A DNA stretch of 64,000 nucleotides. It comes from a virus (lineage: Duplodnaviria; Caudoviricetes). The stretch's first letter is position 1; each line of letters starts with the position of its first letter. This document shows, piece by piece, positions 3,722 through 40,132 of the stretch. The DNA lies in the IMG/VR virus record IMGVR_UViG_3300027762_000009, positions 474 through 64,473 of that record, one strand, 5' to 3'. Below the pieces are notes generated by a model. That model did not search any database. It saw only the letters and a list, made by a program, of their open reading frames with translations, and was not told the DNA's origin. The translations under genes and the position numbers were made by a program.

Positions 3722-4030
3722 ATGCCAAGACGTGGAGGAAGACATTACGTATTAGTTAAAGGAGCGGAACAAGCTTTAGATAAGTTTAAGATGGAAATTG
3801 CAGCAGACCTAGGATTAGATCATAAAGTAGATGCTGATGGAACATTTAAAAACTTCTCAACTATTGAAGTAGGTAAAATAGGTGGAGAAATGGTAAGAAG
3901 AATACAAGCAGCAGGTGAATATGCTATTATGGAAAGATATCGTAAGGGTGAATTAAGATTAATGCCTGAGGATGTATTACCCGATCCAAAGAACGTACGT
4001 GAAGTATCTAACAATGGTAATAAAGTATAA
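3722..4030 (+). CDS. Alpha/beta-type small acid-soluble spore protein (SASP) with C-terminal extension
   Basis: LVKGAEQALDKFKMEIAADLGL and VGKIGGEMVRRI match the two SASP signatures. Confidence 0.88.
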   Translation: MPRRGGRHYVLVKGAEQALDKFKMEIAADLGLDHKVDADGTFKNFSTIEVGKIGGEMVRRIQAAGEYAIMERYRKGELRLMPEDVLPDPKNVREVSNNGNKV

Positions 4031-7000: not shown

Positions 7001-7194
7001 TCTACAGCTTTATCTATTTCTTCTCGATTATATTTAGCTTCCTGTAAATAAACTATCTCCGCTTTGGCAACACACTCAGCAACACGTAAAAACATTTCTT
7101 CCGGTGTCTCACCTCTTAAATATCTCTTCTTTAATACACGAAATGCATTTTCAGTTAACGCTTTTACTGGTTGAAATTGTATTTCTGAATACAT
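4087..7194 (-). CDS. nrdJ: Class II (B12-dependent) ribonucleotide reductase containing an intein
   Basis: [79 protein letters not shown]-terminal Zn-ribbon. Confidence 0.95.
5650..6354 (-). mobile_element. Intein (235 aa) with HNH homing endonuclease, inserted at the RNR active-site NPC/GE motif
   Basis: Begins CVVGDTLI after STNP; block B CTPDHKF; [22 protein letters not shown]; ends VYDMEV..HNFFAN..IHN before C+1 of CGEQ. Confidence 0.93.
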
Positions 7195-11082: not shown

Positions 11083-11853
11083 TTATTCCTCCATAGGTAA
11101 ATCAGAGTATTTCGGTACTGCGCAAGCATCTTTCCATTTACAAATATTAGTTGCCAATAGTAAATGATTTACCACTGTTTCATCAAAAGTAAATTTAAGA
11201 TCTGGTCGATCATCTGAATCTACCTTAATACCTGCTTTAGAATATACGTATGCTATAGCACTATCAATACCACGTACTTTTGGAATAATCTCATCCCTTA
11301 CAGCACATTCAATGAGGGTAGCTTCTAAAGGAGTTTTCCAACAACCCAACATATGAATATCCAAGCCTCTTAATCTATTACCCAATATTTCTAATACTTC
11401 AATTCGTGCATCACGTCCCCCAATATCTGTTAACACTTTAGGAACACCTATGACGTCAATATCCATCATAATCATAGTTTCTGCGCATTGAATCCATTCA
11501 TCAATAGTTTCACCTTGCGGTACCCCCATTAATTTAAAAGGGAAATTTCCTTTAACATAACGAATAGCTTCATATGTTTTTTCTAAAGTAGCTAACATAT
11601 TTTTATATACATCCGGAAGAACAATTTCATTAGCCTTTATCATTAATGCTTTTTTCACTATTTCTTCAATTGGTCTAGGATCTCCCTCAATCACACCATT
11701 ATCCATGATAACATAACGTCCTTTTTGTGCCATCTTAGAATAAAAGCGTGTGTAAGTATCATCCTTCCCTATTAGATGGGCTAAACACATATGATACTCT
11801 TCATCTTCTATTATAGGAAGAAATTTTGTTGGTAAAATCGTTGCAGCTAACAT
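11083..11853 (-). CDS. TGT-fold transglycosylase, divergent DpdA-like 7-deazaguanine exchange enzyme
   Basis: TGT-like motifs VIMDNG, VLPD, GVPQG, IHMLG, RGIDS; adjacent to queC. Confidence 0.7.
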   Translation of the reverse strand: MLAATILPTKFLPIIEDEEYHMCLAHLIGKDDTYTRFYSKMAQKGRYVIMDNGVIEGDPRPIEEIVKKALMIKANEIVLPDVYKNMLATLEKTYEAIRYVKGNFPFKLMGVPQGETIDEWIQCAETMIMMDIDVIGVPKVLTDIGGRDARIEVLEILGNRLRGLDIHMLGCWKTPLEATLIECAVRDEIIPKVRGIDSAIAYVYSKAGIKVDSDDRPDLKFTFDETVVNHLLLATNICKWKDACAVPKYSDLPMEE

Positions 11854-11868
11854 TAGGTAACCTCCCTA

Positions 11869-12564
11869 TTATTTATAATATTCTAAAGGATCATTTATTC
11901 CGTTGGCAAGGAAAGCAGCTTTCCTATCAATACAGGTAGCACAAATACCACAAGCCTTTAATCCACCTTCATAACAACTCCATGTTTTTGTGAAATCTAC
12001 ATCTAATGATATACCTTCAGCTACTATCTCACTTTTTATCTTATACATAAAGGGTGCTATCAAATGTACTAAGCCTCCAGTGCCTAAATGTATAGCCTCT
12101 TGCATAGACGCAATAAAATAGGAAGTACAATCAGGATAAGCATTACCAGCTGCATCGTCAGCATGAGCCCCGTAATAAATAGTATCTGCATCTTTCTGTA
12201 ATGCTATTGCTGTAGCATAGGATAAAAATAAACCATTTCTAAAAGGTACATAGGTTTTAACTGTACCTGTACCACCTATCTTATCTAATTGCTCTTTATA
12301 AGATTCGTGTGGAATATCTTCATCACTACCATGTAATAAGGGGCAACTCGTATCAAACTTAAATACATCAGCTAGATCTGCTTGTATTAGTTCTACATTA
12401 CAGTGTTCTACTTGCTTAACAGCACAAAATTGTTCTTTTTGATGTTTTTGACCATAAAATAAATTTAAAGCAATAACATTTTCCGCACCATATTTAGCTA
12501 CGATATCAGCTAATAAAACAGAACTATCTAAGCCACCACTAACTAATACTAATTTTTTATTCAT
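11869..12564 (-). CDS. queC: 7-cyano-7-deazaguanine synthase
   Basis: SGGLDS, YGQKH, TYVPFRN, YPDC, TWSCY..CGICATC. Confidence 0.95.
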   Translation of the reverse strand: MNKKLVLVSGGLDSSVLLADIVAKYGAENVIALNLFYGQKHQKEQFCAVKQVEHCNVELIQADLADVFKFDTSCPLLHGSDEDIPHESYKEQLDKIGGTGTVKTYVPFRNGLFLSYATAIALQKDADTIYYGAHADDAAGNAYPDCTSYFIASMQEAIHLGTGGLVHLIAPFMYKIKSEIVAEGISLDVDFTKTWSCYEGGLKACGICATCIDRKAAFLANGINDPLEYYK

Positions 12565-12576
12565 ACTCCCTACCTC

Positions 12577-12795
12577 CTATAATGTTGTATCTTGCTTTTC
12601 TTTGATTAAACGATCTAAATACCAACGAGCCTTTTTCAAATCTTCTAGACCATTCTTAGCTTGATATCTACAAACATATTTAATTACATTGCCTGCGCGA
12701 AAATCAAGTTTTTGATCTTCGATGAAATCAATTACCTCTATCTTACCTTGATTATAATGTCCAGGATTATTCACCATATCATTGGGAACAGTCAT
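12577..12795 (-). CDS. DUF3310 family protein (T7 gp1.7-like nucleotide kinase)
   Basis: VNNPGHY..GKIEVIDFI..GNVIKYVCRY..KNGLEDLKKARWYL. Confidence 0.85.
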   Translation of the reverse strand: MTVPNDMVNNPGHYNQGKIEVIDFIEDQKLDFRAGNVIKYVCRYQAKNGLEDLKKARWYLDRLIKEKQDTTL

Positions 12796-13204
12796 CAGAT
12801 TCTTCCCCCTCCATAATAGCTTTTTTGAGAACTTGATACAATTCTGTATTTTCGAAACATTTTTCTTTTGTATGCCGTGAAGCACTATCTGTTGTATTGA
12901 AAGTTTTATTATTATACCTATGTCTTAATTTGCTAATATTAAGAGCCAATATCGTATCCATATTAATACGATTCGTTTTAGCTATGGCACTTATATACCA
13001 CAACACATCTCCTAATTCTTTAGCTAACTTCATTTTATCCAACTGTTCTTCATGAAATATATGATGTTTAAGTAATTCACATACTTCACCAGCTTCACCG
13101 GCTAAACCCAAAGCCCAATCCAACAATTCAGCTTGCTTTGTGGTTAATTCCTTATGATCTTTAAATGTCCTACAGGCCTCTTTCTGGTATTCATTTGGGT
13201 GCAT
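12779..13204 (-). CDS. MazG-like nucleotide pyrophosphohydrolase
   Basis: NEYQ..A.RT, ALGLAGEAGEV, KELGDVLWY, NISKLRHRY. Confidence 0.9.
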   Translation of the reverse strand: MHPNEYQKEACRTFKDHKELTTKQAELLDWALGLAGEAGEVCELLKHHIFHEEQLDKMKLAKELGDVLWYISAIAKTNRINMDTILALNISKLRHRYNNKTFNTTDSASRHTKEKCFENTELYQVLKKAIMEGEESDDCSQ

Positions 13205-13275
13205 AATAAACCTCCTTGGTTATAAATGGAAAAGGAAGATGAACCACGGTGCCAGTTATCCCCCTCTCCATAAGA

Positions 13276-13458
13276 CTAATTATTTAACTTTAAATCCATA
13301 CGAATCACAGGGTTATTACCACCCATATGATATACTTTCACTGTTCCTACCCTAACCTGAATTTCTGCTGAATACTTCATATTATCTTTTTTGTGATCAA
13401 TACCACACTCCAATAGATGTTGAATTCTAACTAATTCTTCCTGACTAAACAAATCCAC
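13276..13458 (-). CDS. Hypothetical protein within the deazaguanine cluster
   Basis: RBS GGGGG before GTG; 60 aa. Confidence 0.55.
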   Translation of the reverse strand: MDLFSQEELVRIQHLLECGIDHKKDNMKYSAEIQVRVGTVKVYHMGGNNPVIRMDLKLNN

Positions 13459-13476
13459 CTTAGTACCCCCTACTAG

Positions 13477-14106
13477 CTATTTTATTAAATTCATCAACTC
13501 AGTTCGTGCATTATTATGCTGTTCTAAAAAAACTCCCCTCATAGCGGATGTAACTGTTTTCGCCCCAAATTTTTGTACCCCACGCATAGTCATACAAAGA
13601 TGTTCAGCTTCAATAATTACAGCAACCCCTCTAGGATTCAACACCTGTTCAATAGTATCTGCTATTTGTGAAGTCATCCTTTCTTGTATTTGTAATCGCT
13701 TTGCAAAACAGTCTACTAAGCGTGCTAACTTACTGATACCCACTACTTTGCCATTTGGTATATAAGCCACATGAGCTATACCATGAAAAGTTACCATATG
13801 ATGCTCACAATGACTATAAAACGGAATATCTTTTACAAGTACTAATTCTTGATGTTTTTCATCTTCAAATGTAATACCTAAAATATCTTTAGGAACTTGA
13901 CTATAACCAGCAAAAATCTCATCGTATAGGCTGGTTACTCTTTCTGGTGTTTCTAATAACCCCTCACGATGAGAATTTTCTCCAATACTTTCAAGCATTA
14001 AATTTACAGCTAACATTCTCTTAGCCAAATTACTTAACTCTTTTGTCCTTTGTAGATTTTCATGTATGGTAAGTGCTTCTTCTTTACTTATCTTGGCTTT
14101 AGCCAT
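13477..14106 (-). CDS. folE: GTP cyclohydrolase I
   Basis: [41 protein letters not shown]. Confidence 0.96.
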
Positions 14107-14121
14107 CTTAACCCCTCCACA

Positions 14122-14748
14122 TTATTTTAGATTGAATATCTTATGCATCTGTACTCCTAAACGAAGTATCCCTGCATGTTTATTACCTTCTGCCATTATG
14201 AAAGTATACGCCCTCATCGCGGAAGTCTGCATATCAAATCCATCTGGCTGCAACCACACTGGTACGATAAGACCTGTATTTAATAAAGTAATAATGTGTT
14301 TATCAAAATCTAACTCTTCTGTTACTACATATTTTAGTTCATCAAATCTACATCTTGGATGTATTACATAATGAGGAGGCTTTGGTGAAGCTACAACCCA
14401 GTCTACATCCTCTGGTGTAGGCATAGTCGCATTTGTTTCTAAACAAACAATAAAATCATTTTGCCTAAGCTCTCGTACCAGTTGGGGTAAAAAAGGACTG
14501 ACACATGGTTCCCCACCAGTAATTGTAACCATATCGATATTTGCCGCTTTACATATACCAATTATTTCAGTTGTGGTCATCCTTGTGCCACCACTATGTC
14601 CCCATGATTCTTTTGTATCACACCAAGGGCAAGCTAAATTACAACCTCCTAGACGTATAAATGTTGTAGGTTGTCCTAGCATAGATCCTTCACCCTGAAT
14701 GCTGGAAAAAATTTCTATTATATAAGGTCCTGTATTATTTTGATTCAT
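14122..14748 (-). CDS. queE: 7-carboxy-7-deazaguanine synthase (radical SAM)
   Basis: EIFSSIQGEG, CNLACPWCDT, TITGGEP, ETN, SPK, QMHK. Confidence 0.95.
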   Translation of the reverse strand: MNQNNTGPYIIEIFSSIQGEGSMLGQPTTFIRLGGCNLACPWCDTKESWGHSGGTRMTTTEIIGICKAANIDMVTITGGEPCVSPFLPQLVRELRQNDFIVCLETNATMPTPEDVDWVVASPKPPHYVIHPRCRFDELKYVVTEELDFDKHIITLLNTGLIVPVWLQPDGFDMQTSAMRAYTFIMAEGNKHAGILRLGVQMHKIFNLK

Positions 14749-15188
14749 CTTATTACCTCCGCAAATGAACTAGGAGTTTCCCATAATCGTAAAACACTAA
14801 TACGAAAAGGATAAGTGTGTTGTTTAAGATACTTGTTTAACTTTTCAATAAAATATTCTGCCATGCGCTCCGCTGTCGGTTTATAAGGAAAAGCATATGT
14901 CTTACGCCCATTTGATTTCAAAATATTTGCTATTTCATATTCGACTACATCTGTTGTTTGCGCCCAATACATAAAAGCATGATCAAGAGGGGCCACTACA
15001 ACTTGATTTACTACCTCTTTTAACTGTTTAAAATCTACAACCATATCCATATCATCTAATATGGTGTTATACCTCGCTGCAGTTACTGTCATTTTGTAAG
15101 TATGTCCATGAATGTTAATACACAAACCTTTATGGTCTGCTAACATGTGGGCCATATCCCATGTAAATTCTTTCGTAATAGTAATCAT
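14745..15188 (-). CDS. queD: 6-carboxytetrahydropterin synthase
   Basis: AHML..HKGLC..IHGHTY, VVDF, LDH, PTAE, LWETP. Confidence 0.95.
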   Translation of the reverse strand: MITITKEFTWDMAHMLADHKGLCINIHGHTYKMTVTAARYNTILDDMDMVVDFKQLKEVVNQVVVAPLDHAFMYWAQTTDVVEYEIANILKSNGRKTYAFPYKPTAERMAEYFIEKLNKYLKQHTYPFRISVLRLWETPSSFAEVIR

Positions 15189-16227: not shown

Positions 16228-17139
16228 TTAAGCATTATCTAATGCATAAAGGGTAGTCATGGTAGGATTATCAATCCATAAACCCTTTAAGGCACTTCCA
16301 AATCTATGTTTAGCTGCAATATGCGCTCCTCCGTAAAAACCTCCTTCAAGATATAAACGACGAATAATAGTACCGCCATCCTGAGGTATTTTATCTAAAT
16401 AACCAACTACGTCAACTAAACCCCGCACATCTCCTGAAAGTTTACCAGGTAACATAGGTTCATAGTGAAATTGCTTTCTAGCATCCTGTTCAAAATCTCT
16501 ACCGCAGATAAATAAACTATTTACAGGAAGATCACGATACCTTCTTACTAAGAATTGAATCATCTCTCTAGATTTACCCCACTCTGAAAATTGTGCTGCA
16601 TCTGGCTCCGCATCTAATTTCTGTTTCAACGGATCAATACCTAATAATTGATACATACAATATTTTTGTGCTTCTGTAAGGGAATCAGTAATAACAGTTC
16701 TAAATTTCTTAGGCTCGGGAATTAGCGCGGCCATTTTCTTTTCATCTTGCAAATCACCTGGTGCGAAACCCTTAATTTGTCCTTCTAATTTACGTAAACT
16801 AACTAAATCATTACTGTCTCTAAATTGTACATGAAGTTTCATAAATTCATAGATATAACTATATTGCTTGTAGTTTTGTACTGGAATAACTAAAATATGC
16901 TTATTAGGGTTAATATCCATCTTTTTACATAACTTAGCAATCTCGCGCAAACTTTTTTCTCCCCCTTCAAGGGATATATACAATATGTCGCGCATTTCTT
17001 CAGCTAATACAGCAGAACCAGCTAACCAAGTCTTACCTACTCCAAAATCGCCATAAAATAAAGCATTCATCCAACTAAAAGATTCTTCAATATCTCTACC
17101 TAAAATTAAAGGTATTGCTGTTGGTGTTGTCATATTCAT
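16228..17139 (-). CDS. AAA_24 / Sak4-like ATPase (recombinase)
   Basis: FYGDFGVGKT Walker A, VITDSLTE Walker B, VDVVGYL, AKHR. Confidence 0.85.
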   Translation of the reverse strand: MNMTTPTAIPLILGRDIEESFSWMNALFYGDFGVGKTWLAGSAVLAEEMRDILYISLEGGEKSLREIAKLCKKMDINPNKHILVIPVQNYKQYSYIYEFMKLHVQFRDSNDLVSLRKLEGQIKGFAPGDLQDEKKMAALIPEPKKFRTVITDSLTEAQKYCMYQLLGIDPLKQKLDAEPDAAQFSEWGKSREMIQFLVRRYRDLPVNSLFICGRDFEQDARKQFHYEPMLPGKLSGDVRGLVDVVGYLDKIPQDGGTIIRRLYLEGGFYGGAHIAAKHRFGSALKGLWIDNPTMTTLYALDNA

Positions 17140-17543
17140 ACTGTTTCCTCCTGTTTGTTATTTTTGTGTATGGTAATACATTTTTGTATCCAATCTTGAT
17201 ACACATCCTTCGCTCTCTTACCCGATCTGAGATCTAGTATGAATCCCGCGATTTCATTATGAAATTCATAAATAAATTCTTTATATGGATCCAATAACAC
17301 AGTAGGTTTAGTCATTAGCTTTGTTTCAGATACCATAGTGGGGTGTATTATTTGTCCATCACATAAAGATACACGTAATCCTTTAGTAATATCTTCCAAA
17401 AACCCAAGTAATGCATTACTATCATCTATTAATGCATTGTGCATAGTTACTAAAGAATTATATGCTTTAACTTCTTTTCCATATTTACCTCTTACCTCAC
17501 ATACAGCACATGCGGGAATACTTCCCATAACTTCTTTTTCCAT
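17136..17543 (-). CDS. Hypothetical protein
   Basis: ORF with RBS, overlapping the next gene. Confidence 0.6.
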   Translation of the reverse strand: MEKEVMGSIPACAVCEVRGKYGKEVKAYNSLVTMHNALIDDSNALLGFLEDITKGLRVSLCDGQIIHPTMVSETKLMTKPTVLLDPYKEFIYEFHNEIAGFILDLRSGKRAKDVYQDWIQKCITIHKNNKQEETV

Positions 17544-17546
17544 TAT

Positions 17547-17687
17547 CTATTCCTCCTCTACATTATTTTCTTTTATGTTTTCACTTTCACATATCACACA
17601 AGTTGGTATTTCATGTTCCCCAAAATATTCAAACCATTCTTGTTTACACTCTTTACATATCCATCCATTACTTGGTAAATATAACAT
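17547..17687 (-). CDS. Small Zn-ribbon protein (46 aa, absent from the ORF track)
   Basis: MLYLPSNGWICKECKQEWFEYFGEHEIPTCVICESEN..; RBS GGAGGAG. Confidence 0.7.
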   Translation of the reverse strand: MLYLPSNGWICKECKQEWFEYFGEHEIPTCVICESENIKENNVEEE

Positions 17688-17689
17688 AA

Positions 17690-19051
17690 CTACTCCTCCT
17701 TAGTCTTATTATCATCAGGTAATATAATATTTATACCGTCAAAATCAATATCAAAATCATCTTCTATTACTACGCCCTCTTTTATCATTTCATTGATTTT
17801 CATTCGCCACTCTTCTTTTTGCCCATCTTCTTGTCTTGGTCTTGCTTCGTATTCATTATCAAGAATTAAAGCTACTTCACTATTACGACCATCATCAATA
17901 GCTAAACAAACGTGACGTAAAGGACAGTCCCAAATACAATCTCTGGTAGGATTCGGATATAAATATAAATCAGAATTAAGCATTAATTGAAGTTCTCCCA
18001 TTATATGTCTATATGTGGCTTCTAATTGTTCTTTATTACGTTGAATAAAATCCCATCTAATAAATCTATCACCCTCAGGAGTTTCCTGCTCAGCTAGATG
18101 GTTTAAAAAATCTATATATTTCATAGGGGCTTTCTGCACAGAACCAAATTCATTAATTAATTCTTGTCTAACAAGATAATGTGTAGTCTTTTGTTTCTTA
18201 TCCACACTTAATTCACCGCTTTTTAGCCGTTTAGGTTTTTTAGCAATATCTTTAGTTAGTTGCAAATAAACAAAGCCATATATAGGATGCCCAAACCATT
18301 TTTCCGCTGCCCATAAATAAGCACTAATCTGGTCATCTGTGTCTAATTTATTTGTATCTGCTCCTTTAGCGGTCTTATAGTCAAGAATCCACCAGCGTCC
18401 ATAACGATCTATTACAAGTCTATCCATAGTACCATGATAATAAATAGGTACTATCTTAATAGGTATTTCTTTTCCTTTATGCATATAAGTATATTCTGGT
18501 TCCTGATCAGCAAGCCTAAACATATCAAAGGCATTCTGGTTTATTAACTGTGGATCTCCTTCCTTATATTCACAGATAATTTCTTCTGTCTTAGCATTTA
18601 CTATTACTTTAATATCCAGGTCAATAAAAAAACGTTGCTCTACTGCAGGCTTAGCTCCTTCACTGAAAGGAACACAAGGTTTATTATTTTCGTTTAACCA
18701 TAGTGTTTGGAAATCCCATTGTTTGTTATATCGTGGATACCAATCTAAGAAGTATGTTAACATTGCTATTCCCAAATCATATGCGTCTTCCGCTCCATCA
18801 GGTAATGTATCCTTATCAAATGCATTGTAATATGCCTTGAATGCTTTTCTTGGATCACCAAAATAATTATAACTAAAATAGTCTTCCATAGCGAAATGTA
18901 TCGCGGAACCGAACCAAAAATGTATATTCTGTTCAGTCCCTTTTCTTTGTAAGTTTCCTTTAAGAGACGATTGCCATCCCCATTTACGTAAACAACGTCT
19001 AAAAACACGTCTATCTGAAGTTCTTATAGTAAATTTACTTAAATTGTCCAT
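17690..19051 (-). CDS. PD-(D/E)XK exonuclease (Cas4/RecB-like)
   Basis: RCLRKW, FGSAIH, GTMDRL..WILDYKT, QISAYLWA, C-terminal CIWDCPLRHVC. Confidence 0.88.
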   Translation of the reverse strand: MDNLSKFTIRTSDRRVFRRCLRKWGWQSSLKGNLQRKGTEQNIHFWFGSAIHFAMEDYFSYNYFGDPRKAFKAYYNAFDKDTLPDGAEDAYDLGIAMLTYFLDWYPRYNKQWDFQTLWLNENNKPCVPFSEGAKPAVEQRFFIDLDIKVIVNAKTEEIICEYKEGDPQLINQNAFDMFRLADQEPEYTYMHKGKEIPIKIVPIYYHGTMDRLVIDRYGRWWILDYKTAKGADTNKLDTDDQISAYLWAAEKWFGHPIYGFVYLQLTKDIAKKPKRLKSGELSVDKKQKTTHYLVRQELINEFGSVQKAPMKYIDFLNHLAEQETPEGDRFIRWDFIQRNKEQLEATYRHIMGELQLMLNSDLYLYPNPTRDCIWDCPLRHVCLAIDDGRNSEVALILDNEYEARPRQEDGQKEEWRMKINEMIKEGVVIEDDFDIDFDGINIILPDDNKTKEE

Positions 19052-32053: not shown

Positions 32054-32468
32054 AATCGATATAAATATGTTTCCCGGACTTCTTATTGGGTTATTCTCGA
32101 AACTGAGGAGATCGATACGAGATTTAGGGATTCTCTGGACTTAAACAAATTTGCCGGACGTTTTAAGGGCTGCAGTGATTGTTTTACTTAAACTGTGGAA
32201 TATCCAGTAAGGGATTCAATCTTACGGACTTGCTCAAACGGTGTTAGTTTTAATAGGTTCTATGGAGACGGGCCGGGGAGGCCACCGATGACCTTCTTCC
32301 GCAAGTTTGATCCTCTTGCAGGTTGCCAGGTTCCGGCCCGACCAGTTAAAGTCGTGCGACCAAGCGGCCCACTGGCCCATCTCCTACTATACATTTATTT
32401 TATTACCCACCCATCTCCTACTATATATTTATTTTTATCGCCCGTCTATTAGGTCCTCTTATAAGTAG

Positions 32469-33003: not shown

Positions 33004-33444
33004 TTATTTGGAGCCCTTTGTTGTTTTAGTCTTTTTAGCCACTGCTTCGATCACTTCCACAGCTTCTTGAACTTCTTCCGCAGTGACCACCGGGTTCATT
33101 TCCTTTTTAACCTTCCACACTTGACTATAGTCACATTTTAGTTCTCTTTGTATGTCGATGATTTTCATCCCGTCGGCTAACATCGCCTTAATCTGATTCT
33201 TTCTTTCGTTGTTGCCGTGAGACCTGATTGATTTTTCAATTTCGATTCCGTTTTTGATCACGTAATTACTGATCACATTATATGCATGATTATAAATTAC
33301 GCCTACCATCTGATGAATGTCCTTCACTTCGTATCCTGCATCGAATAATGTTTGGATCCTTTTGCTCTTGGACAATGTTTCATCCTTTGCTACCGCCATT
33401 GCCTCTTCCGTAGTCATTGTTACTTGTTTGTTAACTATTTTCAT
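33004..33444 (-). CDS. Tandem-HTH DNA-binding protein (paralog of 24584..25429 and 35766..36146)
   Basis: SKSKRIQTLFDAGYEVKDI..VIYNHAYN / ERKNQIKAMLADGMKIIDI..CDYSQVW. Confidence 0.75.
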   Translation of the reverse strand: MKIVNKQVTMTTEEAMAVAKDETLSKSKRIQTLFDAGYEVKDIHQMVGVIYNHAYNVISNYVIKNGIEIEKSIRSHGNNERKNQIKAMLADGMKIIDIQRELKCDYSQVWKVKKEMNPVVTAEEVQEAVEVIEAVAKKTKTTKGSK

Positions 33445-33846
33445 AATAGTCCACCTTTCTGCCCTTACTGCCGGGCCAGCTAAAATGTTATTGGTAGAAA
33501 TTAAATGTTTGTTTAATTTCTATATTATTATTATATCATATATTATAAAAAATATCACGTTATTTTTAAAATAAATTTTCCCTTGCCCCATTAGACCATG
33601 AATCAGGTAAACGCCCTCCAGGTTCGTATCCTACAGTGTGTCGTTGTGTAAACGGTTACTCGGGCGCGGCAAATGTGTTTAGGGGTTTAAAACACCACAC
33701 TGGTACGCGGGGAATCCTGGAACAGGTTAATCCGGGAAACGGGTAACTGGGGAACGTTTTAAAGGGTGGGCGGAGACGGGCCAATGTGCGCACGGCAGAA
33801 CGTTTTAAACGTTGGGCAAGGACAACCCAGCCGGGCGATCGCTGGC

Positions 33847-33900
33847 CCCTCTCCCTCATACCATTTAATTGATAGCTCCCTCTCCGTCATACCATTTAAT
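33847..33900 (+). repeat. 23-bp direct repeat with one mismatch
   Basis: CCCTCTCC(C/G)TCATACCATTTAAT at 33847 and 33878. Confidence 0.9.
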
Positions 33901-33946
33901 AACTTTTGTAACAGGAGTAAGGAACTTAAAAGTTTTTAAAAAGGAG

Positions 33947-33975
33947 TTGAAAAGGATACAATTTTAATATATAAT
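33947..33975 (+). promoter_or_regulatory. SigmaA-type early promoter
   Basis: TTGAAA-17 bp-TATAAT. Confidence 0.75.
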
Positions 33976-34030
33976 ATAAATATAAAAATTTATTTTAAGT
34001 ACCATCCGGTACAGAAAGGGGATATTAATA

Positions 34031-34366
34031 ATGAAACAGGATAAAGTAATGAAGTATTTAAAAAAGAAGGGAGTGGAGGATAAAATATTTGAAATCTTGT
34101 TTGTAACGTGTTCTAAGGACTATATACATCCGAAGGAACAGTTGGAATGGGGGAAAGAGCATGTAACTAATAAAATGAATGAGATGGATGATATTATATG
34201 TGCATACTATGATGAACTAATAAACTTACCTTGTACTATGGAACTTATTCAAAGAGATTTAATAAAGGTTAAGGAAATTAGGGATATATACTTTGAGGCA
34301 AAAAAAAGGGCTCTTGCAAATGGAGTTAATTTTACAGATGAGGGAGGTAAAATAAATGGAATCTAA
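34031..34366 (+). CDS. Hypothetical early protein
   Basis: RBS AAAGGGG after a promoter. Confidence 0.7.
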   Translation: MKQDKVMKYLKKKGVEDKIFEILFVTCSKDYIHPKEQLEWGKEHVTNKMNEMDDIICAYYDELINLPCTMELIQRDLIKVKEIRDIYFEAKKRALANGVNFTDEGGKINGI

Positions 34367-34604
34367 TAATGTTTTAAAGATGAGTGATTGTGACTTTGAT
34401 TGTAGTTGGGAAGATAGGATAAGGATTACGAAGGATGATGTATCGATAATAGATGTGGAACTGAGTGAATTAACTACTATTATGTTGAAGGAAGATGTAG
34501 TACAGTTACATCTATTTGGTGTTACGTACTTGGAAATAACTCATGAGGATGCGAAGGGGATGTTGGAATCCCATGCTGAGAATTGGGTAGAGAAAGAAAA
34601 TTAA
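34356..34604 (+). CDS. Hypothetical acidic early protein
   Basis: RBS GGAGG. Confidence 0.65.
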   Translation: MESNNVLKMSDCDFDCSWEDRIRITKDDVSIIDVELSELTTIMLKEDVVQLHLFGVTYLEITHEDAKGMLESHAENWVEKEN

Positions 34605-34734
34605 TAGGTTAGATGGAGAGTGGGATTATTTAATTATAATCCCACTCTTGATTTCCATACGGACCTTATTATATAATATTATTATAATAAAAATATATTT
34701 GATGTACCCTCTGAGGTACAGGAAGGAGTAAGTT

Positions 34735-35160
34735 ATGAAAAAGATGGAGTTAAATGTAGGAGGTACTAAGTTAGTGGAGAGTGTGGTATATTATGGGATG
34801 AGTCAGATGGATTGGACTATAAGATGGTTTTATGGGGATGATCTTAGAGAAAGGGAGTTAAGTGAGACGAGGAAGACGATGTTCTTAGAAGTAGGTTTTA
34901 CGGAAGATTATGTGGAGAAGATAACGGAAATGAGAGTTGGTAAATTTTATGATACATTGAAGATGATGAAGGAATTGGAAGAGAAATTAAGGAATATTGC
35001 GGGAACAGGTCAAGGGGATCTGGAAGATTTATATTGTATCGTAACGGAATTATTAAGATCTCAGGAGGGATTAGTGGAGATGATGAACTGGTGTGAGGAT
35101 GAGGAAGAGTTGGACCTATTAATAGATTTGATCGAAGGACTAGGGTGGGAAGTCGCGTAG
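34735..35160 (+). CDS. Hypothetical acidic early protein
   Basis: RBS GGAAGGAG; own promoter TTGATT-18-TATAAT. Confidence 0.7.
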   Translation: MKKMELNVGGTKLVESVVYYGMSQMDWTIRWFYGDDLRERELSETRKTMFLEVGFTEDYVEKITEMRVGKFYDTLKMMKELEEKLRNIAGTGQGDLEDLYCIVTELLRSQEGLVEMMNWCEDEEELDLLIDLIEGLGWEVA

Positions 35161-35168
35161 TTTTAAGA

Positions 35169-35192
35169 AGGAGTCCGAAAGGACTCTTTTTT
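35169..35192 (+). terminator. Rho-independent terminator
   Basis: GAGTCC-GAAA-GGACTC followed by a T-run. Confidence 0.88.
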
Positions 35193-35462
35193 ATGGGGTT
35201 TTATGGGCAGGGGGCGACGGAGATGGGCCGGCGAGGCTTCTGGCTTTTAGGTCTTTGAGGACGGGCCGGCATGAAGTAATAAATTAAAAATATAGACGTT
35301 TTAGGGACGTTTTAGACGGAATGACGACGTTTTATGGGCGTTTTATGGGCCGACGGAGACGGGCCAAGGATGCTCGTGGGGTGACGTGCCGGCCACCTCC
35401 ATTGACAAAGGTTTTTTACAAAAAATTGCCCGAGGGTTTTACGGTATTTTTGGGGGGAACAA

Positions 35463-35546
35463 CACGTTACCACGTTACCCTACTAAACACTTTACCACTT
35501 TACCCTACTAAACACCTTACCACGTTACCACTTTACCACTTTACCC
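35463..35546 (+). repeat. CAC(G/T/C)TTAC 8-mer array with CCTACTAAA spacers
   Basis: About eight copies in 85 bp. Confidence 0.9.
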
Positions 35547-35685
35547 GACTAACCCATTAAATCACTAACCCCCCTAAAATAATTATATATTATAAAATTA
35601 TAATATTATTCGATATAAAAAAAGTTGTTCGTGGTATTATAATAAAAGGTAATAAAAAAATAATTAAAATAATTAATAAAAAGTA

Positions 35686-35714
35686 TTGACCTTATATATA
35701 ATATATGTTATAAT
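35686..35714 (+). promoter_or_regulatory. Strong sigmaA promoter with extended -10
   Basis: TTGACC-17 bp-TATAAT with TG at -15 and an A-rich UP element. Confidence 0.85.
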
Positions 35715-35765
35715 ATAAATATAGTAAGTAATTAAAAAATAAATTAAAGAAAGGAAGTATTTACT

Positions 35766-36146
35766 ATGATTATTAAAAAAGAGTTTATTAAAAAAATAAA
35801 TGAAAAGGAGGAAAATATTTTATTAGAAAATTATTTTAATAATAAAATTAGTAAAAAAGATATTATAATTAAATTATTTTATAATGGTTATAATATAAAA
35901 GAAATTAGTAATAAATTAAATATTATATATAATATGGTATATAATTATATTAAAGAAAATAGTTTAAAATTAGGTTTTTATAACGATATCGATTTTAGTA
36001 AAAATAATAATAATAATGGTAAAAGTAATTTAATAAAAAAATTATTTTTAGAAGGTAAAAATGTTATCGAAATTTGTATCGAATTAAAAATAGGTAGTAA
36101 TTATTGTAACAAAGTTATTAAAGAAATTAAAGAAGGTAAAAGGTAA
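35766..36146 (+). CDS. Tandem-HTH protein encoded by an almost C-free gene
   Basis: SKKDIIIKLFYNGYNIKEI..IIYNMVYN / GKSNLIKKLFLEGKNVIEI; own promoter, RBS AAAGGA and terminator. Confidence 0.75.
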   Translation: MIIKKEFIKKINEKEENILLENYFNNKISKKDIIIKLFYNGYNIKEISNKLNIIYNMVYNYIKENSLKLGFYNDIDFSKNNNNNGKSNLIKKLFLEGKNVIEICIELKIGSNYCNKVIKEIKEGKR

Positions 36147-36155
36147 AATTAATAT

Positions 36156-36194
36156 AAAAGTTATTATATAGAAATATATAATAACTTTTTTTTT
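36156..36194 (+). terminator. Rho-independent terminator
   Basis: AAAAGTTATTATATA-GAAA-TATATAATAACTTTT followed by a T-run. Confidence 0.85.
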
Positions 36195-36332
36195 GTAAAA
36201 TTTTGGAAATTTTCCTTCGGAAAATTTCTTTTTAACCCTAAAGGGTTTTCATTGTTTTATCCTTTTTTAGTTTTAAGTCTACTCGTTTTATAAAGCATCC
36301 AGTTCTCCCACACCGGTACTTTTTCCTCTAGT

Positions 36333-36408
36333 GGCATGGCAATCTGGAGGGCATGGCAATCTGGAATCTGGAATCTGTATGGCAATCTGGATGGCAATCT
36401 GACAATCT
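36333..36408 (+). repeat. (GGC)AATCTG(G) repeat cluster upstream of terS (candidate pac/cos region)
   Basis: About seven AATCT copies, with ATGGCAATCTG x4. Confidence 0.8.
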
Positions 36409-36562: not shown

Positions 36563-36587
36563 GACTAATTAAACCATAATCATAAGC

Positions 36588-36654
36588 AAATAAATAAATA
36601 AATAAATAAATAAATAAACAGGATGATAAATAAATAAATAAATAAATAAATAAA
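36588..36654 (+). repeat. (AAAT)n microsatellite, duplicated, in the late leader
   Basis: Two (AAAT)n-AAACAGGA blocks. Confidence 0.9.
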
Positions 36655-36674
36655 CAGGAAGGGAGGAAACACGT

Positions 36675-37691
36675 ATGCAGCCAACACAAGCAACAACAAC
36701 TACAGCTATAGCGGCCCTAGACTGGGATGCTAAAGGAATAACTTGTTATCAGAAGAAACTGGGAGATTTTGTACAAACATTACAACAAGATTGCGAAGTA
36801 AATAATATTGGGATGCCCTTAACTTACGTGGATCCAACCGTCATTGCGGAAACCACCCACTGGTGCGCAAGTCCTGACGATATACCGGATGACAAATTTA
36901 ATGCTTCAATTGTCCCTATAGAATTTGAAGACGGTCTGCCCACCGTAAATGGGTTACCCTTTTGGGAACGGCTAGATGGCGAAACGCTCCCGTACTATAA
37001 TGTGTTCAAGCAATATAGGGACATGAAGTATTACAACAATACACATCTTAACACTCGTTCCATTGCGCGTTTAGGTGAGGAAATAGGAGTTCCTGGGAGA
37101 TTTCTTTCAATCCTCGGAAGGATCTATCATTGGTCACCGAGATGCAAGGCATTCGACATGTATCGAGAAAGAGAACTTCAACTTAGAAGACAAAGGGATA
37201 TGGAACAATTAGAAAATAAGCACTCTAAATATGCAATGGATCTCTTAGAACAGGCAATCGCCTATTTGAAAGATAATCCAAAGCAGCTGAATCCTAAGAC
37301 GGCTTTGGATATGGTAGAGTTAGGAATGAAATATGGGCGTGTTTCAGCAGGCCTACTAGGTGATAAGCCTGGGCAAACAGCAGCTTCTTCCGTTCATCAA
37401 ACAAACATTGCAATTCAGTCCAATTCAAACACCCAAATGGATCATTCCCAAAATGGGGTTGTGCTGAATAACGGAACTGGTTCCAATAGTCCTGCTGGGC
37501 GGAAGTTAGCTGATAATTTAAAAGACAATGGTACTTTGGCAAGTATCTTACATGTCCTGAATAGATCTGGTGCCCTCTCCACAGCGGCACCAGAAACCCC
37601 TATTGAAACTACTATGGATGAGACTCCAATCGTCGATGTTATAGATATAACACCAATTGAAACAAATAGCAAAGAAGGTGAAAATGTATGA
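36675..37691 (+). CDS. terS: Putative terminase small subunit
   Basis: WERLDGET..Y..F..YRD..RS..W..R..AFD pattern; immediately upstream of terL. Confidence 0.7.
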   Translation: MQPTQATTTTAIAALDWDAKGITCYQKKLGDFVQTLQQDCEVNNIGMPLTYVDPTVIAETTHWCASPDDIPDDKFNASIVPIEFEDGLPTVNGLPFWERLDGETLPYYNVFKQYRDMKYYNNTHLNTRSIARLGEEIGVPGRFLSILGRIYHWSPRCKAFDMYRERELQLRRQRDMEQLENKHSKYAMDLLEQAIAYLKDNPKQLNPKTALDMVELGMKYGRVSAGLLGDKPGQTAASSVHQTNIAIQSNSNTQMDHSQNGVVLNNGTGSNSPAGRKLADNLKDNGTLASILHVLNRSGALSTAAPETPIETTMDETPIVDVIDITPIETNSKEGENV

Positions 37692-40132
37692 GTACATTCT
37701 TACGCAGTAATTCGCAAAAGGCTCCAAATCGTAGCGAAGAGAAACCTTCGGCAATAAACCCACCTGGTACGTTAAACGATTTGCTAAATAGTTTAAATGT
37801 TGCCAATATTGATTTTAATGCCTTGCCCAGATCTGAATTAGCAGTCCTCCAACAGCTGCTTACGCCTAAAATGACTCAGTATATCCCACATGTGCCAACA
37901 CCTAAACAAGCAGCCTTCCTCCTTTTGGACTGCAAAGAGGCTTTTTATGGCGGAGCCGCTGGTGGGGGTAAGAGTGATGCTCTACTTATGGGAGGTTTGC
38001 AGTATGTAGATACTAAGGGATATGCTGGAATCATTTTTCGTAAATCGTATGCAGATTTAACAAAGCCTGGTGCTTTGATAGATAGAAGTAAAGAATGGTT
38101 ATTTAAGTTTAATGATGTACGATGGGTTGAAAAAGATAAGAAATTTGAATTCTTTAAAAAATATGGACCCCATACAGAAGTGTGGTCAATCCTTCAATTC
38201 GGATATTTGGAAACAGCTAATGACAAGTACAACTATCAGGGTCAACTTATTCACTGCCCTCCAGAGTAGTTGTATTACATAACCGGTATATGAGACGGTA
38301 TCTGGTATTGCGTGAACGCATGTAAAAGCGGTGTGCAAAAGACAAGAAGAGTAAACGGAGGTTGAAGAGTATGTCTTTTAAAGTAAATGAAATCCTAGGT
38401 GATATGCAAATTCTAAAAATTGATACAAAAAACAAAGCCCGACCTAAAGTCGTATTAAAATGTCAGATTTGTGGTTATGTAAGAACAATTGGCCAATCTG
38501 CTTTATATAGGGGTGTAGGTAGAACACATCAAGCCTGTATCCAGGCAATTCAAAAGAATTGTGTTCCCGAAGATAAAGATAAACTAGAACGTTTTAGACT
38601 AGTTTATCATCAGGCAGAACAACGTTGTAATAACCCAAACATAAGTAATTATATGAATTATGGTGGGCGGGGTATAAAAATGTTATTTAAAGATTATGCA
38701 CATTTTTATTGTGTTATGTGGTCCTCTTACAGAGAAGGTTTAACACTAGAAAGAAAAGACAATGAGGGACATTATACACCAGAGAATTGCTGTTGGGTAA
38801 CACGTAAAGAACAGGCTGTTAATAGGCGTACTAGTATAAAAATAATAGCTACTAAAGTAGCTACAGGTTATACTAAATACTATGCCACCATCACTGATTT
38901 TTTACAGGAAAACCAAATGTCTTTAAATATAGGTGGAAATATTAAAAATTGTATCGATAAACCAAATAGAACCTATCTAGGATGGAAATTTATAAGTGCT
39001 AACGGGGAACCCCCAAAGATGGAATCCCGTGCCAAGCCTATATAATAGGAAGGTGTAGAGACTAATTGTACACTAGGGATTAACACTAGTGGAAGTGCGC
39101 AAAGTAAAAAGAGATAGTCCGTACTAGGGTGAATATCAATTTGTAGGCTTTGATGAGTTAACACATATTGATATGAGTAATTATTTATATATGTTTTCTC
39201 GTATGAGAAGACTCAAGGGATCTAATGTACCATTGCGTGTTAGAGGGGGAAGTAATCCTCCTGACGATGATCAAGGTATTTGGGTTTATAATCGTTTTGT
39301 TAATCCAGAAACAAAGAAAGATGGTTTAATTTTTATTCCGGCAGGTATGGATGACAATCCATATCTTGATTCAGAAGAATATGAAAAGTCTCTTGAAGAA
39401 TTAGATCCCGTAACAAGGGCGCGTCTTCGCGACGGTGACTGGACTATTACACGTAAAGGCAATATGTTTAAACGAGGTTGGTTTGAAATAGTGGATAGTG
39501 CTCCTACTTATAGACGTAAAGTGCGTTTTTGGGATATGGCCGCTTCTGATGAAGAAAAGGCTAAAAAACGCAATAAGTCAAATGAACCGGATTATACGGT
39601 TGGGTTACTGATGAGTGAAGCAGCTGGAATTTATTACATAGAAGATATTATTCGTGTAAGAAAAAGGCCGGCTGAAACAGAACAATTACAAAAGATTACT
39701 TCGGTAACTGATGGGCATAATGTAGCTATTAGAGAAGAACAGGAGCCTGGTTCTTCTGGAATAACTACTATTGATATGAAGGCAAGAAATATTTTTGTTG
39801 GTTTCAACTATCAAGGAATTCGTTCTACAGGATCCAAGATTCTTAGAGCACAAGGATTTAGTGCCGCGGCAGAAAGAGGACAAGTTAAAATAGTAAGAGG
39901 CTGTAGACACATTGAGGAATTTTTTAATGAATTAGAAAGCTTCCCAGGCGGACTGCACGATGATATGGTTGATTCGGCCAGTGGAAGTTTTTCCGAATTA
40001 AAATTTATCCCTCAGGATACCGCTCCTTTGACTATAGAAAATTATGAAGGTTCTTATTGGGCTGATGAAGACACATTGGGCTCTGGTTATTTTAGAGATA
40101 TAAAATCTTTTGTTAGAAGGGAGGTTAGTTGA
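37688..40132 (+). CDS. terL: Terminase large subunit, two exons (37688-38242 and 39128-40132)
   Basis: [10 protein letters not shown] Walker A; splicing restores [16 protein letters not shown] (Walker B); RFWDMAAS and HDDMVDS nuclease motifs. Confidence 0.93.
38243..39127 (+). ncRNA. Group I self-splicing intron
   Basis: P1 AGGGU/GCCCU with U.G at the 5' splice site; P10 UAUUCAC pairs with exon 2 GUGAAUA; core ACGGG/CCCGU (P4), GUAGAGACUA / AUAGUCC (P7); terminal G. Confidence 0.9.
38371..39045 (+). CDS. Intron-encoded HNH homing endonuclease
   Basis: [41 protein letters not shown]. Confidence 0.88.

Follow-up and report, generated by a model that had tools for sequence, protein, structure and literature searches.

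Why would a phage keep one short gene almost free of one of the four bases? The question is raised by gene B, which encodes a predicted helix-turn-helix (HTH) protein in the middle of the DNA analysed here (hereafter the window: 64,000 nt, bases 474-64473 of a 64,473-bp uncultured virus record with a CheckV completeness of 99%). An earlier note on this DNA had drawn attention to the absence of the dinucleotide GpC around the gene. Our data indicate that the missing GpC is a by-product and not the target of a more general phenomenon: the transcription unit of gene B is recoded under selection in such a way that its sense strand is nearly without cytosine.

The gene B transcription unit

The unit is composed of the following elements.

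35575-36213, plus strand: C-poor zone of 639 nt that takes in the promoter region, the 5′ untranslated region, the gene and the first terminator, with 11 C (six within CpG)
35686-35714, plus strand: sigmaA/sigma70-type promoter of B (TTGACC, 17 nt, TATAAT; extended −10 TG; 11 of 12 matches)
35750-35757, plus strand: Shine-Dalgarno-like AAAGGAAG, 8 nt ahead of the ATG, read from the sequence
35766-36146, plus strand: gene B, predicted 126-aa tandem-HTH DNA-binding protein, recognised by its open reading frame (ORF), composition, profile and fold
36156-36194, plus strand: first intrinsic terminator, with one G-C pair among the 15 bp of its stem and nine U behind it
36205-36247, plus strand: two more terminator-like hairpins found by folding (including 36234-36247), where C reappears
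35429-36294, strand not assigned: GpC-free run, from dinucleotide counts

Gene B is a real gene, as is evident from its long ORF, its paralog, a confidently modelled fold, a promoter and a Shine-Dalgarno-like site; from the composition we estimate the chance of a 126-codon open frame at this AT-richness as ~1e-8. As far as can be read from the DNA, the locus has the spaced −35 and −10 boxes, the ribosome-binding site and the intrinsic terminator of a sigmaA-type unit, and the terminator fold (36144-36262) has a minimum free energy of −29.4 kcal/mol (z −4.57; 0 of 200 shuffles as stable). A sequencing or assembly artefact is unlikely: the ORF is intact, another contig carries a 99%-identical variant, and orthologs come from many samples.

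The 381 nt of gene B contain 195 A, 5 C, 45 G and 136 T. Each C is the third letter of its codon (AAC twice, ATC three times), and four of them precede G. None of the 125 residues is Ala, Pro, Thr, Gln or His, the five amino acids whose codons always include C (hereafter C-requiring residues; binomial P for the absence of all five, 4e-15). The synonymous choice is equally one-sided, with AGT in 6 of 6 Ser, TTA in 10 of 10 Leu and GGT in 6 of 6 Gly codons. From the amino acids of B and the codon usage of the window, 19.9 ± 3.9 C would be expected, and none of 3,000 simulations fell as low as the five observed. The four 300-nt segments of the plus strand that are lowest in C all lie within 33894-36064. 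Our recount agrees with the earlier note in the five C (four in CG) and the five absent amino acids, as well as in the gene's own consensus promoter and terminator, the latter an A-U hairpin; the template strand is almost free of guanine, as the note had also stated, since the sense strand is almost without cytosine.

The GpC-free island itself exists as described. The 865 nt from 35430 to 36294 (A385 C73 G92 T315) contain no GC and 14 CG dinucleotides, and no other stretch of the window goes as long without GC (867 nt; runner-up 424 nt), a dinucleotide that is otherwise not rare there (2175 occurrences, observed/expected 1.10). The permutation test suggested in the earlier note was carried out, and zero GC was indeed rarely reached (1 of 20,000 plain shuffles, 0-3 of 5,000 block shuffles). 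However, of the 7.8 GC expected in the island, 5.1 fall in the repeat array at 35430-35570, whose copies are not independent trials; in the promoter region, gene and 3′ flank only ~2.7 would be expected. The absence of GpC as such therefore exceeds chance only partly, and it cannot serve as the headline finding. GpC was also rejected as the avoided unit because the relatives L005 and L013 (L and G numbers are our labels for loci and records) are not depleted in it (19 vs 14.7, 2 vs 1.4 and 14 vs 10.2 expected). The C remaining in gene B stand after A or T, in NAY and NTY codons, and this placement accounts for the GpC deficit in the window and in a further relative, L011.

A peculiarity of the residual C deserves mention. 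In window 35984-36080 and in the L011 B gene they mostly occur as NNC followed by GA(A/T), yielding (A/T)CGA(A/T), and at codon junctions they preferentially precede G (4 of 8 vs 1 of 55 in the window; 8 of 15 vs 6 of 27 in L011). This preference opposes the genome-wide CpG deficit (observed/expected 0.61-0.66).

Cytosine exclusion in the tandem-HTH family

Gene B matches PHROG 10300 ('transcriptional regulator', E 3.3e-7), and its Pfam scores with Terminase_5 (19.3, cut-off 20.3) and HTH_23 (17.6, cut-off 24.6) are below the gathering cut-offs. It is tied to a neighbouring gene, paralog A, by BLASTP (35% identity over 98 aa, E 4e-12) and by a common profile family; paralog A scores 28.3 bits with HTH_23, above the cut-off of 24.6. 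The AlphaFold2 model of B, based on 70 relatives (mean pLDDT 86.8), predicts two HTH domains of 3-4 helices. Foldseek gave no full-length structural match at E <= 0.001, and its best rows (E 0.13-2) align ~43 residues of a single domain at 2 Å to RcsB, DosR and GerE. The architecture of B, two 3-4-helix HTH units and a linker, is shared with bipartite HTH domains of the paired/Tc3 type; the likeness to the single HTH domains of LuxR/GerE proteins or resolvases is at the level of one domain.

A search of 1.84 billion representative proteins with a profile of A and B yielded 266 relatives (E <= 1e-3), and the best 150 of them were examined. Two HTH units, an SKS...G...Y-N-x-x-Y-N pattern, a length of ~110-160 aa and a position beside the terminase small subunit gene (terS) characterise the family and are all found in B; K30, S31, G41, Y55, N56, Y59, N60 and G97 are nearly invariant. 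A family gene adjoins terS in the window, G001, G002, G003, G004, G005, G007, G008, G009, G010 and L095, and each related phage has two or three members beside terS. No homolog of A or of a normal B was found by tblastn in 50,697 cultured-phage records, a word-index protein search with B returned its own cluster only (1 of 117 candidates), and single-sequence locus scans gave no loci. The family is known from uncultured phages only. A 65% GC Eubacteriales metagenome-assembled genome (MAG) contains an unusual variant (L096:5962-6717; 251 aa, ordinary composition), in which a longer C-terminal part, rich in Ala and Gly, is joined to the first HTH unit of the family.

Among the 150 representatives examined, the median share of C-requiring residues is 18%, seven proteins have none and five exactly one. 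The C-free representatives are less than 50% identical to each other, and in many of them E, V, G, M and S abound instead of K, N and I. For the relatives, DNA was available from 11 viral, 61 metagenome and 2 genome-bin loci. The B orthologs contain 4 C in 372 nt in L005, 8 C (2.5%) in 324 nt in L013, whose genome has 48% GC, and no C in 360 nt in L095; in L011 there are 24 C in 357 nt and only 3 C-requiring residues. AT drift or transfer from an AT-rich donor was rejected as an explanation, the orthologs of L013 (38% G) and L095 (25% G) being equally C-free. In G000, G002 and G003, B is the most C-poor of 68, 61 and 67 ORFs, and among 1,383 ORFs of at least 90 aa in 746 kb (a scan that left out the L095 genes) values of C <= 4% or of C-requiring residues <= 3% are seen in the four B genes only. 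In the 61 metagenome loci, L031 has the same sequence as L005, the next lowest are L033 (6.9% C) and L019 (8.3%), and the other 58 range from 9.2 to 34%. The B orthologs of G005, G006, G009 and G010 are of ordinary composition (13-21% C). A limited search, which is not proof of absence, found no papers on C-free phage genes.

The most extreme case is L095, a contig binned with a Herbinix MAG, which is not proof of host. In its segment 4872-6745 (1,874 nt) 5 C stand against 483 G, and elsewhere in the locus C makes up 20%; the longest C-free run is 1,184 nt, and four consecutive ORFs (104, 47, 119 and 83 aa) lack Ala, Pro, Thr, Gln and His in 357 codons. A run of this length fits a cost paid per position better than a threshold effect. 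Substitutes for G-C stems are seen in both phages: the long A-U hairpin in the window, and in L095 three (GGGT)4 G-quadruplex-type motifs (5825, 6320, 6686) located exactly between cistrons and on the sense strand only. Normal-composition co-oriented genes follow the L095 cassette, and no terminator was recognised between them and it. The product of the 47-aa ORF and two of the three proteins encoded upstream of B in the window are strongly acidic (pI 4.0-4.3), and they presumably recall small DNA-mimic inhibitors, a resemblance that we treat as a lead and not as evidence.

The exclusion of C operates at the nucleotide level and in a strand-specific manner, and not at the protein level only. 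In the six-fold codon families of the four C-poor orthologs, AGY outnumbers TCN 26 to 2 for Ser, TTR outnumbers CTN 33 to 4 for Leu, and AGR outnumbers CGN 13 to 1 for Arg. L013 is particularly telling: Leu is TTR in 9 codons and CTN in none, in a genome using TTR for only 19% of Leu; 1 of 17 NNY codons ends in C, against 58% genome-wide; and four-fold sites have C in 0 of 28 against 26%, G in 36% against 10% and T in 39% against 35%. Third-position C was found once in 124 codons of L005 and once in 108 of L013, though a few Ala, Thr and Gln codons are kept at conserved sites. Selection on tRNA or amino acid usage was rejected, as these conserved codons stay, synonymous C is gone, and the non-coding spacers are C-free too. 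Untranslated leaders and spacers are C-poor as well. The zone begins 150-330 nt upstream of the mapped promoter (L013 showed no consensus promoter), and in all four loci read, namely the window, L005, L011 and L013, its end coincides with the terminator. The protein seems to have been kept functional despite the loss of C: the conserved small residue of the HTH, which in normal members is Ala or Ser (29/13 in the first HTH, 21/22 in the second), is in C-free members Ser in 13 and Ala in 2 cases in the first HTH, and Cys in 8, Ser in 7 and Ala in 2 in the second, which suggests replacement of alanine by Ser or Cys.

Part of this pattern would be produced by mutational bias, i.e. by deamination of C, spontaneous or by a host or phage deaminase, on the non-template strand of a strongly transcribed unit or on DNA that is single-stranded near a replication or packaging site, the proteins drifting into a C-free alphabet as far as function allows. 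Such a process would be strand-specific and regional and would extend to non-homologous neighbour genes and non-coding spacers, as observed; the promoters are near consensus, Gly in the window gene is GGT in 6 of 6 cases with NNY codons ending in T, and the preference of residual C for a following G could reflect a deaminase's neighbour preference. Deamination, however, makes T and not G, whereas at the four-fold sites of L013 it is G that has replaced C, and G rises in the window's upstream operon too. Furthermore, other highly expressed genes are ordinary (14-17% C in the major-capsid-region ORFs), orthologs with equally good promoters are not depleted, the change of conserved Ala to Ser or Cys, rather than Val, requires transversions, and a run of 1,184 nt without C in a segment whose four ORFs are intact would need selection as well. 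We therefore consider mutational bias quite improbable as the cause. Promoter strength as a determinant of the trait was likewise rejected, since normal orthologs match 9-11 of the 12 positions too.

The trait is distributed in a patchy manner. In a quick maximum-likelihood tree of 123 family rows and 129 columns, with the trait defined as <= 3% C-requiring residues (21 rows), the best tree needs 13 changes, at least 2 of them forced by well-supported branches, and the B protein of L013 is the sister of its own normal paralog (support 95). The scatter of C-poor rows is a conservative result, because composition bias should pull such rows together. C exclusion was thus apparently gained and lost repeatedly. 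In L011 (9962-10309; record G002) C-requiring residues number 3 of 115, and third-position C has 12 of 33 NNY codons, against the genome's 20%; it looks like a lineage in relaxation, in which the constraint may recently have been lifted. Taken together, these observations demand an agent that reads a single strand of the unit, that charges for each C of the sense strand or each G of the template, and whose presence varies between hosts or phages.

The earlier note had offered, as an alternative, that the island is first-entering DNA or a genome end purged of restriction sites. A strand without C can contain no palindromic site that includes G:C. The gene always adjoins terS and repeat arrays, which may be packaging signals; contigs end within ~0.2-0.6 kb of a family member in G005, G006, G007, G008 and G009; and C in the window rises with distance from terS (1.3, 5.9, 7.6 and 8.0%). 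Nevertheless, four of the five C in gene B build exactly such palindromes (TCGA three times, once within ATCGAT, and GATATC), and the terminators of L005 and L011 are made from similar ones. B stands on either side of terS and in either orientation, and orientation to terS was rejected as the determinant of the trait, since both the co-oriented (window, G001, G002) and the divergent genes (G003, L095) are C-free or C-poor. Avoidance of sites requires neither strand asymmetry nor the removal of all C. The contig of the window itself continues on both sides of the island: the record is linear, has no end repeats, and its ends lie elsewhere. The contig ends near repeats in the other records are perhaps mere assembly breaks, or breaks at modified DNA. 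The explanation by a genome end or a purge of restriction sites is not supported by this evidence, and we regard it as very improbable.

Possible guanine modification of the template and its alternatives

What kind of agent could impose such a cost? The window encodes one module that bears on this question.

11083-15188, minus strand: 7-deazaguanine (preQ0) module (candidate transglycosylase of 256 aa, QueC, nucleotide-kinase-like ORF, MazG, FolE, QueE, QueD)

FolE, QueD, QueE and QueC, at 11869-15188, provide the genes for preQ0 synthesis, and Pfam matched them as the earlier note had it (QueC 4.5e-49, GTP cyclohydrolase I 1.5e-73, radical SAM 5e-13, PTPS 7.6e-29). QueC is found in all six related records of at least 36 kb and in the window, with the same QueC-neighbour gene in 7 of 7. 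These phages very probably replace guanines of their DNA with a 7-deazaguanine base supplied by their own que module. In all phages of this kind known so far the base is reported to be inserted after replication by a DpdA-type enzyme, and, depending on the DpdA subfamily, from <0.1% to 100% of G is modified (PMC10516641). Bacterial glycosylases are described in a recent preprint as excising 7-deazaguanine bases and breaking DNA in proportion to modification density, with phage escape only by giving up the modification (bioRxiv 10.1101/2025.10.29.685425); the price of each modified G would then depend on the host.

On these grounds our tentative preference, held with well under even confidence, is that the B unit is an immediate-early cassette and has a template strand free of guanines that could be modified. 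Modified template guanines would be the liability. A G-free template would offer the host RNA polymerase no modified base and, a step that we rank as more important, would present none of the abasic sites or nicks made by modification-dependent host defences; a cassette with its guanines confined to one strand would, moreover, be safe from cuts through both. The incoming genome would then still allow synthesis of the first regulator and the adjoining small accessory proteins, and the rest of the genome, written in four letters, would be expressed afterwards. In its widest form, which we find rather unlikely, the idea would be that a Clostridia-type clade of uncultured phages with guanine modification has repeatedly evolved one-letter-missing immediate-early operons as a counter-defence, with up to 1.9 kb of G-free template, a 15-amino-acid alphabet and A-U hairpins or G-quadruplex motifs replacing G-C stems, and that these operons encode a regulator and small acidic inhibitors rescuing the rest of the genome.

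A number of observations weigh against the modified-template explanation. G005, G006, G009 and G010 carry the same que module and have normal B genes, so the module alone does not predict the trait, and since all checkable family phages carry it, the association is confounded by common descent. Differences in que gene content as the determinant were rejected, none being found (QueF hits inside FolE in 7 of 7, QueC neighbour in 7 of 7). Searches for DpdA/TGT at E <= 1 gave no match with PF01702 in 5 of 5 and with PF23859 in 7 of 7 genomes, so that insertion of the base into DNA, like the presence and sites of guanine modification in these phages, is inferred only; the modification-dependent defence in their hosts is assumed. 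As for the enzyme, the 256-aa QueC neighbour resembles Atlas clusters, one of which has 17% DpdA-annotated members, a lead only; its single-sequence structure model has a pLDDT of 32.5, and it gave no PDB sequence hit. In vitro, synthetic 7-substituted 7-deazaguanines are reported to hinder bacterial RNA polymerases when transcription starts, whereas elongation neither pauses nor slows (PMC4838386). The B promoter keeps G:C pairs in its −35 box, paralog A has a good sigmaA-type promoter yet ordinary composition, the C-free zone of L005 begins ~250 nt upstream of the mapped promoter, and the window's upstream operon still holds 90 C. The earlier note's suggestion that RNA polymerase evades modified guanines thus stands as a possibility, given the que module and the G-free template, and is weakened by the normal orthologs, the missing DpdA match and an effect limited to initiation. 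Interference of 7-deazaguanine with sigma or transcription factors is discussed as possible in one paper (PMC6884629), and in the available parts of that paper and of two others (PMC10516641, bioRxiv 10.1101/2025.10.29.685425) there is no mention of strand-asymmetric guanine or C-free genes.

The same exclusion would also be expected if the target were RNA, a C-less transcript escaping a host factor that needs C in RNA or needs CTP; the cassette would then represent those early-operon genes that can be expressed while the phage has yet to make a remedy of its own. Rho, chain termination by CTP analogues from a defence enzyme, endoribonucleases cutting at C sites, and CTP shortage are the candidates. 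Rho loads on C-rich, G-poor RNA, and defence enzymes that make CTP-analogue chain terminators are known. An RNA target explains equally well a strand-specific exclusion confined to a transcription unit in which G is kept or raised (NNR codons of the window's upstream operon, 48% vs 23%; four-fold sites of L013, as given above); the patchy, repeatedly gained and lost distribution suits a host-dependent agent; and in L011 the protein is still short of C-requiring residues while third-position C has returned. The layout of L095, where normal genes follow the cassette with no terminator, is the one expected if a cassette product lifts the block. No DNA modification has to be assumed, which is consistent with the failure of the que module to separate C-free from normal orthologs. 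Each candidate meets its own difficulty, however: Rho needs many C over tens of nucleotides, so that depletion to a few percent should be enough and 1,184 nt of zero C exceeds the need; chain terminators require a sensitive host polymerase, for which we found no support; nucleases with fixed sites would select against motifs and not against every C. The reach of the L005 C-free zone upstream of its promoter is as awkward here as it is for a modified template. All in all, the RNA-level explanation, doubtful as it is when taken by itself, is about as good as that of a template without modifiable guanine.

Genomic setting and comparison with known systems

Gene B is surrounded by the following elements.

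33004-33444, minus strand: paralog A, 146 aa, divergently transcribed; ordinary (15% C, 21% C-requiring residues)
33947-33975, plus strand: promoter-like site of the upstream operon (TTGAAA, 17 nt, TATAAT)
34031-34366, 34356-34604 and 34735-35160, plus strand: upstream operon of three small ORFs, C-poor and G-rich
35161-35440, plus strand: non-coding element, rich in GC, that contains GGAGACGGGCC and repeats of the GTTTTA(T/A)GGG type (families D7-D13)
35441-35570, plus strand: C-rich, G-poor direct-repeat array, unit TTACCAC(G/T)TTACC, upstream of the B promoter (family D3)
36675-37691, plus strand: terS, the conserved neighbour of B in relatives (PHROG 6299, E 3e-11)

The earlier note was right that the composition of B is not shared by its paralog and that the genes at 34031-35160 are poor in C. 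The bias of the latter is milder than that of gene B (8.0, 7.6 and 5.9% C; the remaining 54 ORFs in our table have 9-20%); Arg is AGR in 12 of 12 codons, G is in excess (P <= 0.002) and makes up 40% of third positions, and two of the three products are acidic (pI 4.28 and 4.34). No homologs of the three ORFs were found in the relatives (tblastn, E <= 1e-4). The small genes beside B differ between phages, with a sole weak homologous pair in G001 and G002, and the C bias is still shared.

The window has three GC-rich elements in AT-rich surroundings (32130-32460, 33575-33900 and 35161-35440) that share GTTTTA(T/A)GGG-type repeats and GGAGACGGGCC; both are also present in a related phage, ahead of its B gene (L011 9200-9490), and the third element has a 35-nt match at the equivalent place in L011. 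Rfam gave no match at gathering score and one chance-level miRNA row (E 0.47). The elements may be binding sites of the HTH proteins or of the terminase, or a packaging or replication signal. Upstream of terS (window 36333-36400 and 36582-36660) there are direct repeats of GGCAATCTGGA and a long (ATAA)n tract, and L095 has as an analogue three copies of GGATTGTACGCCA beside its terS; these repeats are candidate terminase recognition sites.

The phage is of the tailed type and encodes both terminase subunits. The large one is split into two ORFs (37688-38269 and 39173-40132) with an HNH endonuclease ORF (38362-39045) between them, and this arrangement (37688-40132) looks like an intron or other mobile insertion. 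The gene for the ribonucleotide reductase large subunit (4087-7194, minus strand) contains an intein with an HNH domain. The replication block comprises a family A polymerase, a primase-helicase, a ligase, an SNF2 helicase and a PD-(D/E)XK nuclease; the polymerase (8418-10889, minus strand) has a domain of the uracil-DNA-glycosylase superfamily at its N-terminus. Other genes encode a sigma factor, a cell-wall amidase and an alpha/beta-type small acid-soluble spore protein (3722-4030, plus strand), the last of which points to a spore-forming Firmicute host. Together with the Herbinix and Eubacteriales MAG bins of the two genome-bin loci, this gene makes Clostridia the probable hosts of these phages. 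For minus-strand genes the most C-poor stretch is 17517-17816 (plus-strand G 5%, skew −0.66), at the junction of ORFs 17136-17543 and 17690-19051 and far milder than the B cassette. No tRNA genes were found in the window, and it has no near DNA-level matches among cultured phages. At least half of its words occur in two sequencing runs, one the probable source and one from another study; an RNA run with a 0.06 share of the words carries no information on expression.

A natural coding region that excludes one base, across several genes and in independent lineages, bears on the extent to which genomes can be recoded, and 15 amino acids evidently suffice for a functional DNA-binding protein. Identification of the agent that charges for each C of the transcript or each G of the template (lesions at modified guanines, C-dependent termination or nuclease activity, and nucleotide-analogue defence are candidates) would expose a new layer of phage–host conflict. 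The B cassette makes it testable whether 7-deazaguanine modifications disturb transcription, a question raised in the discussion of one paper (PMC6884629). In uncultured phages, long runs in which one strand has G and no C may serve as a signature of immediate-early and anti-defence genes.

Several known systems invite comparison. In the first-step-transfer region of T5 and the leading end of T7, restriction sites or other motifs are avoided in the phage DNA that enters first; like the B cassette, these are early, strongly promoted segments shaped by the action of the host on incoming DNA. In contrast to them, the B cassette excludes a whole nucleotide from one strand, down to the amino acid level, while palindromes such as TCGA remain. 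APOBEC footprints and the CpG depletion of vertebrate viruses are examples of viral composition under host editing or sensing, and share with our case a composition-based evasion recurring in independent lineages. They are, however, genome-wide, partial and defined by context, whereas the B cassette is local (0.6-1.9 kb), near-absolute, confined to one transcription unit and found in phages. The G-less and C-less cassettes used for in-vitro transcription, which can be read with one nucleotide missing, are laboratory constructs; the B cassette is natural and protein-coding and forces a 15-letter amino acid alphabet. The phages in which que genes are combined with DpdA have FolE/QueD/QueE/QueC-type genes in common with the window and six larger relatives, in which no DpdA was recognised; according to the reports on them, 7-deazaguanine in phage DNA protects from restriction, and counter-defence acts at each modified G (PMC6884629, PMC10516641, bioRxiv 10.1101/2025.10.29.685425). 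The nearest phenomena are motif avoidance in first-entering DNA and compositional evasion in animal viruses, and the B cassette differs from both by the near-total exclusion of a base from one strand of a small operon.

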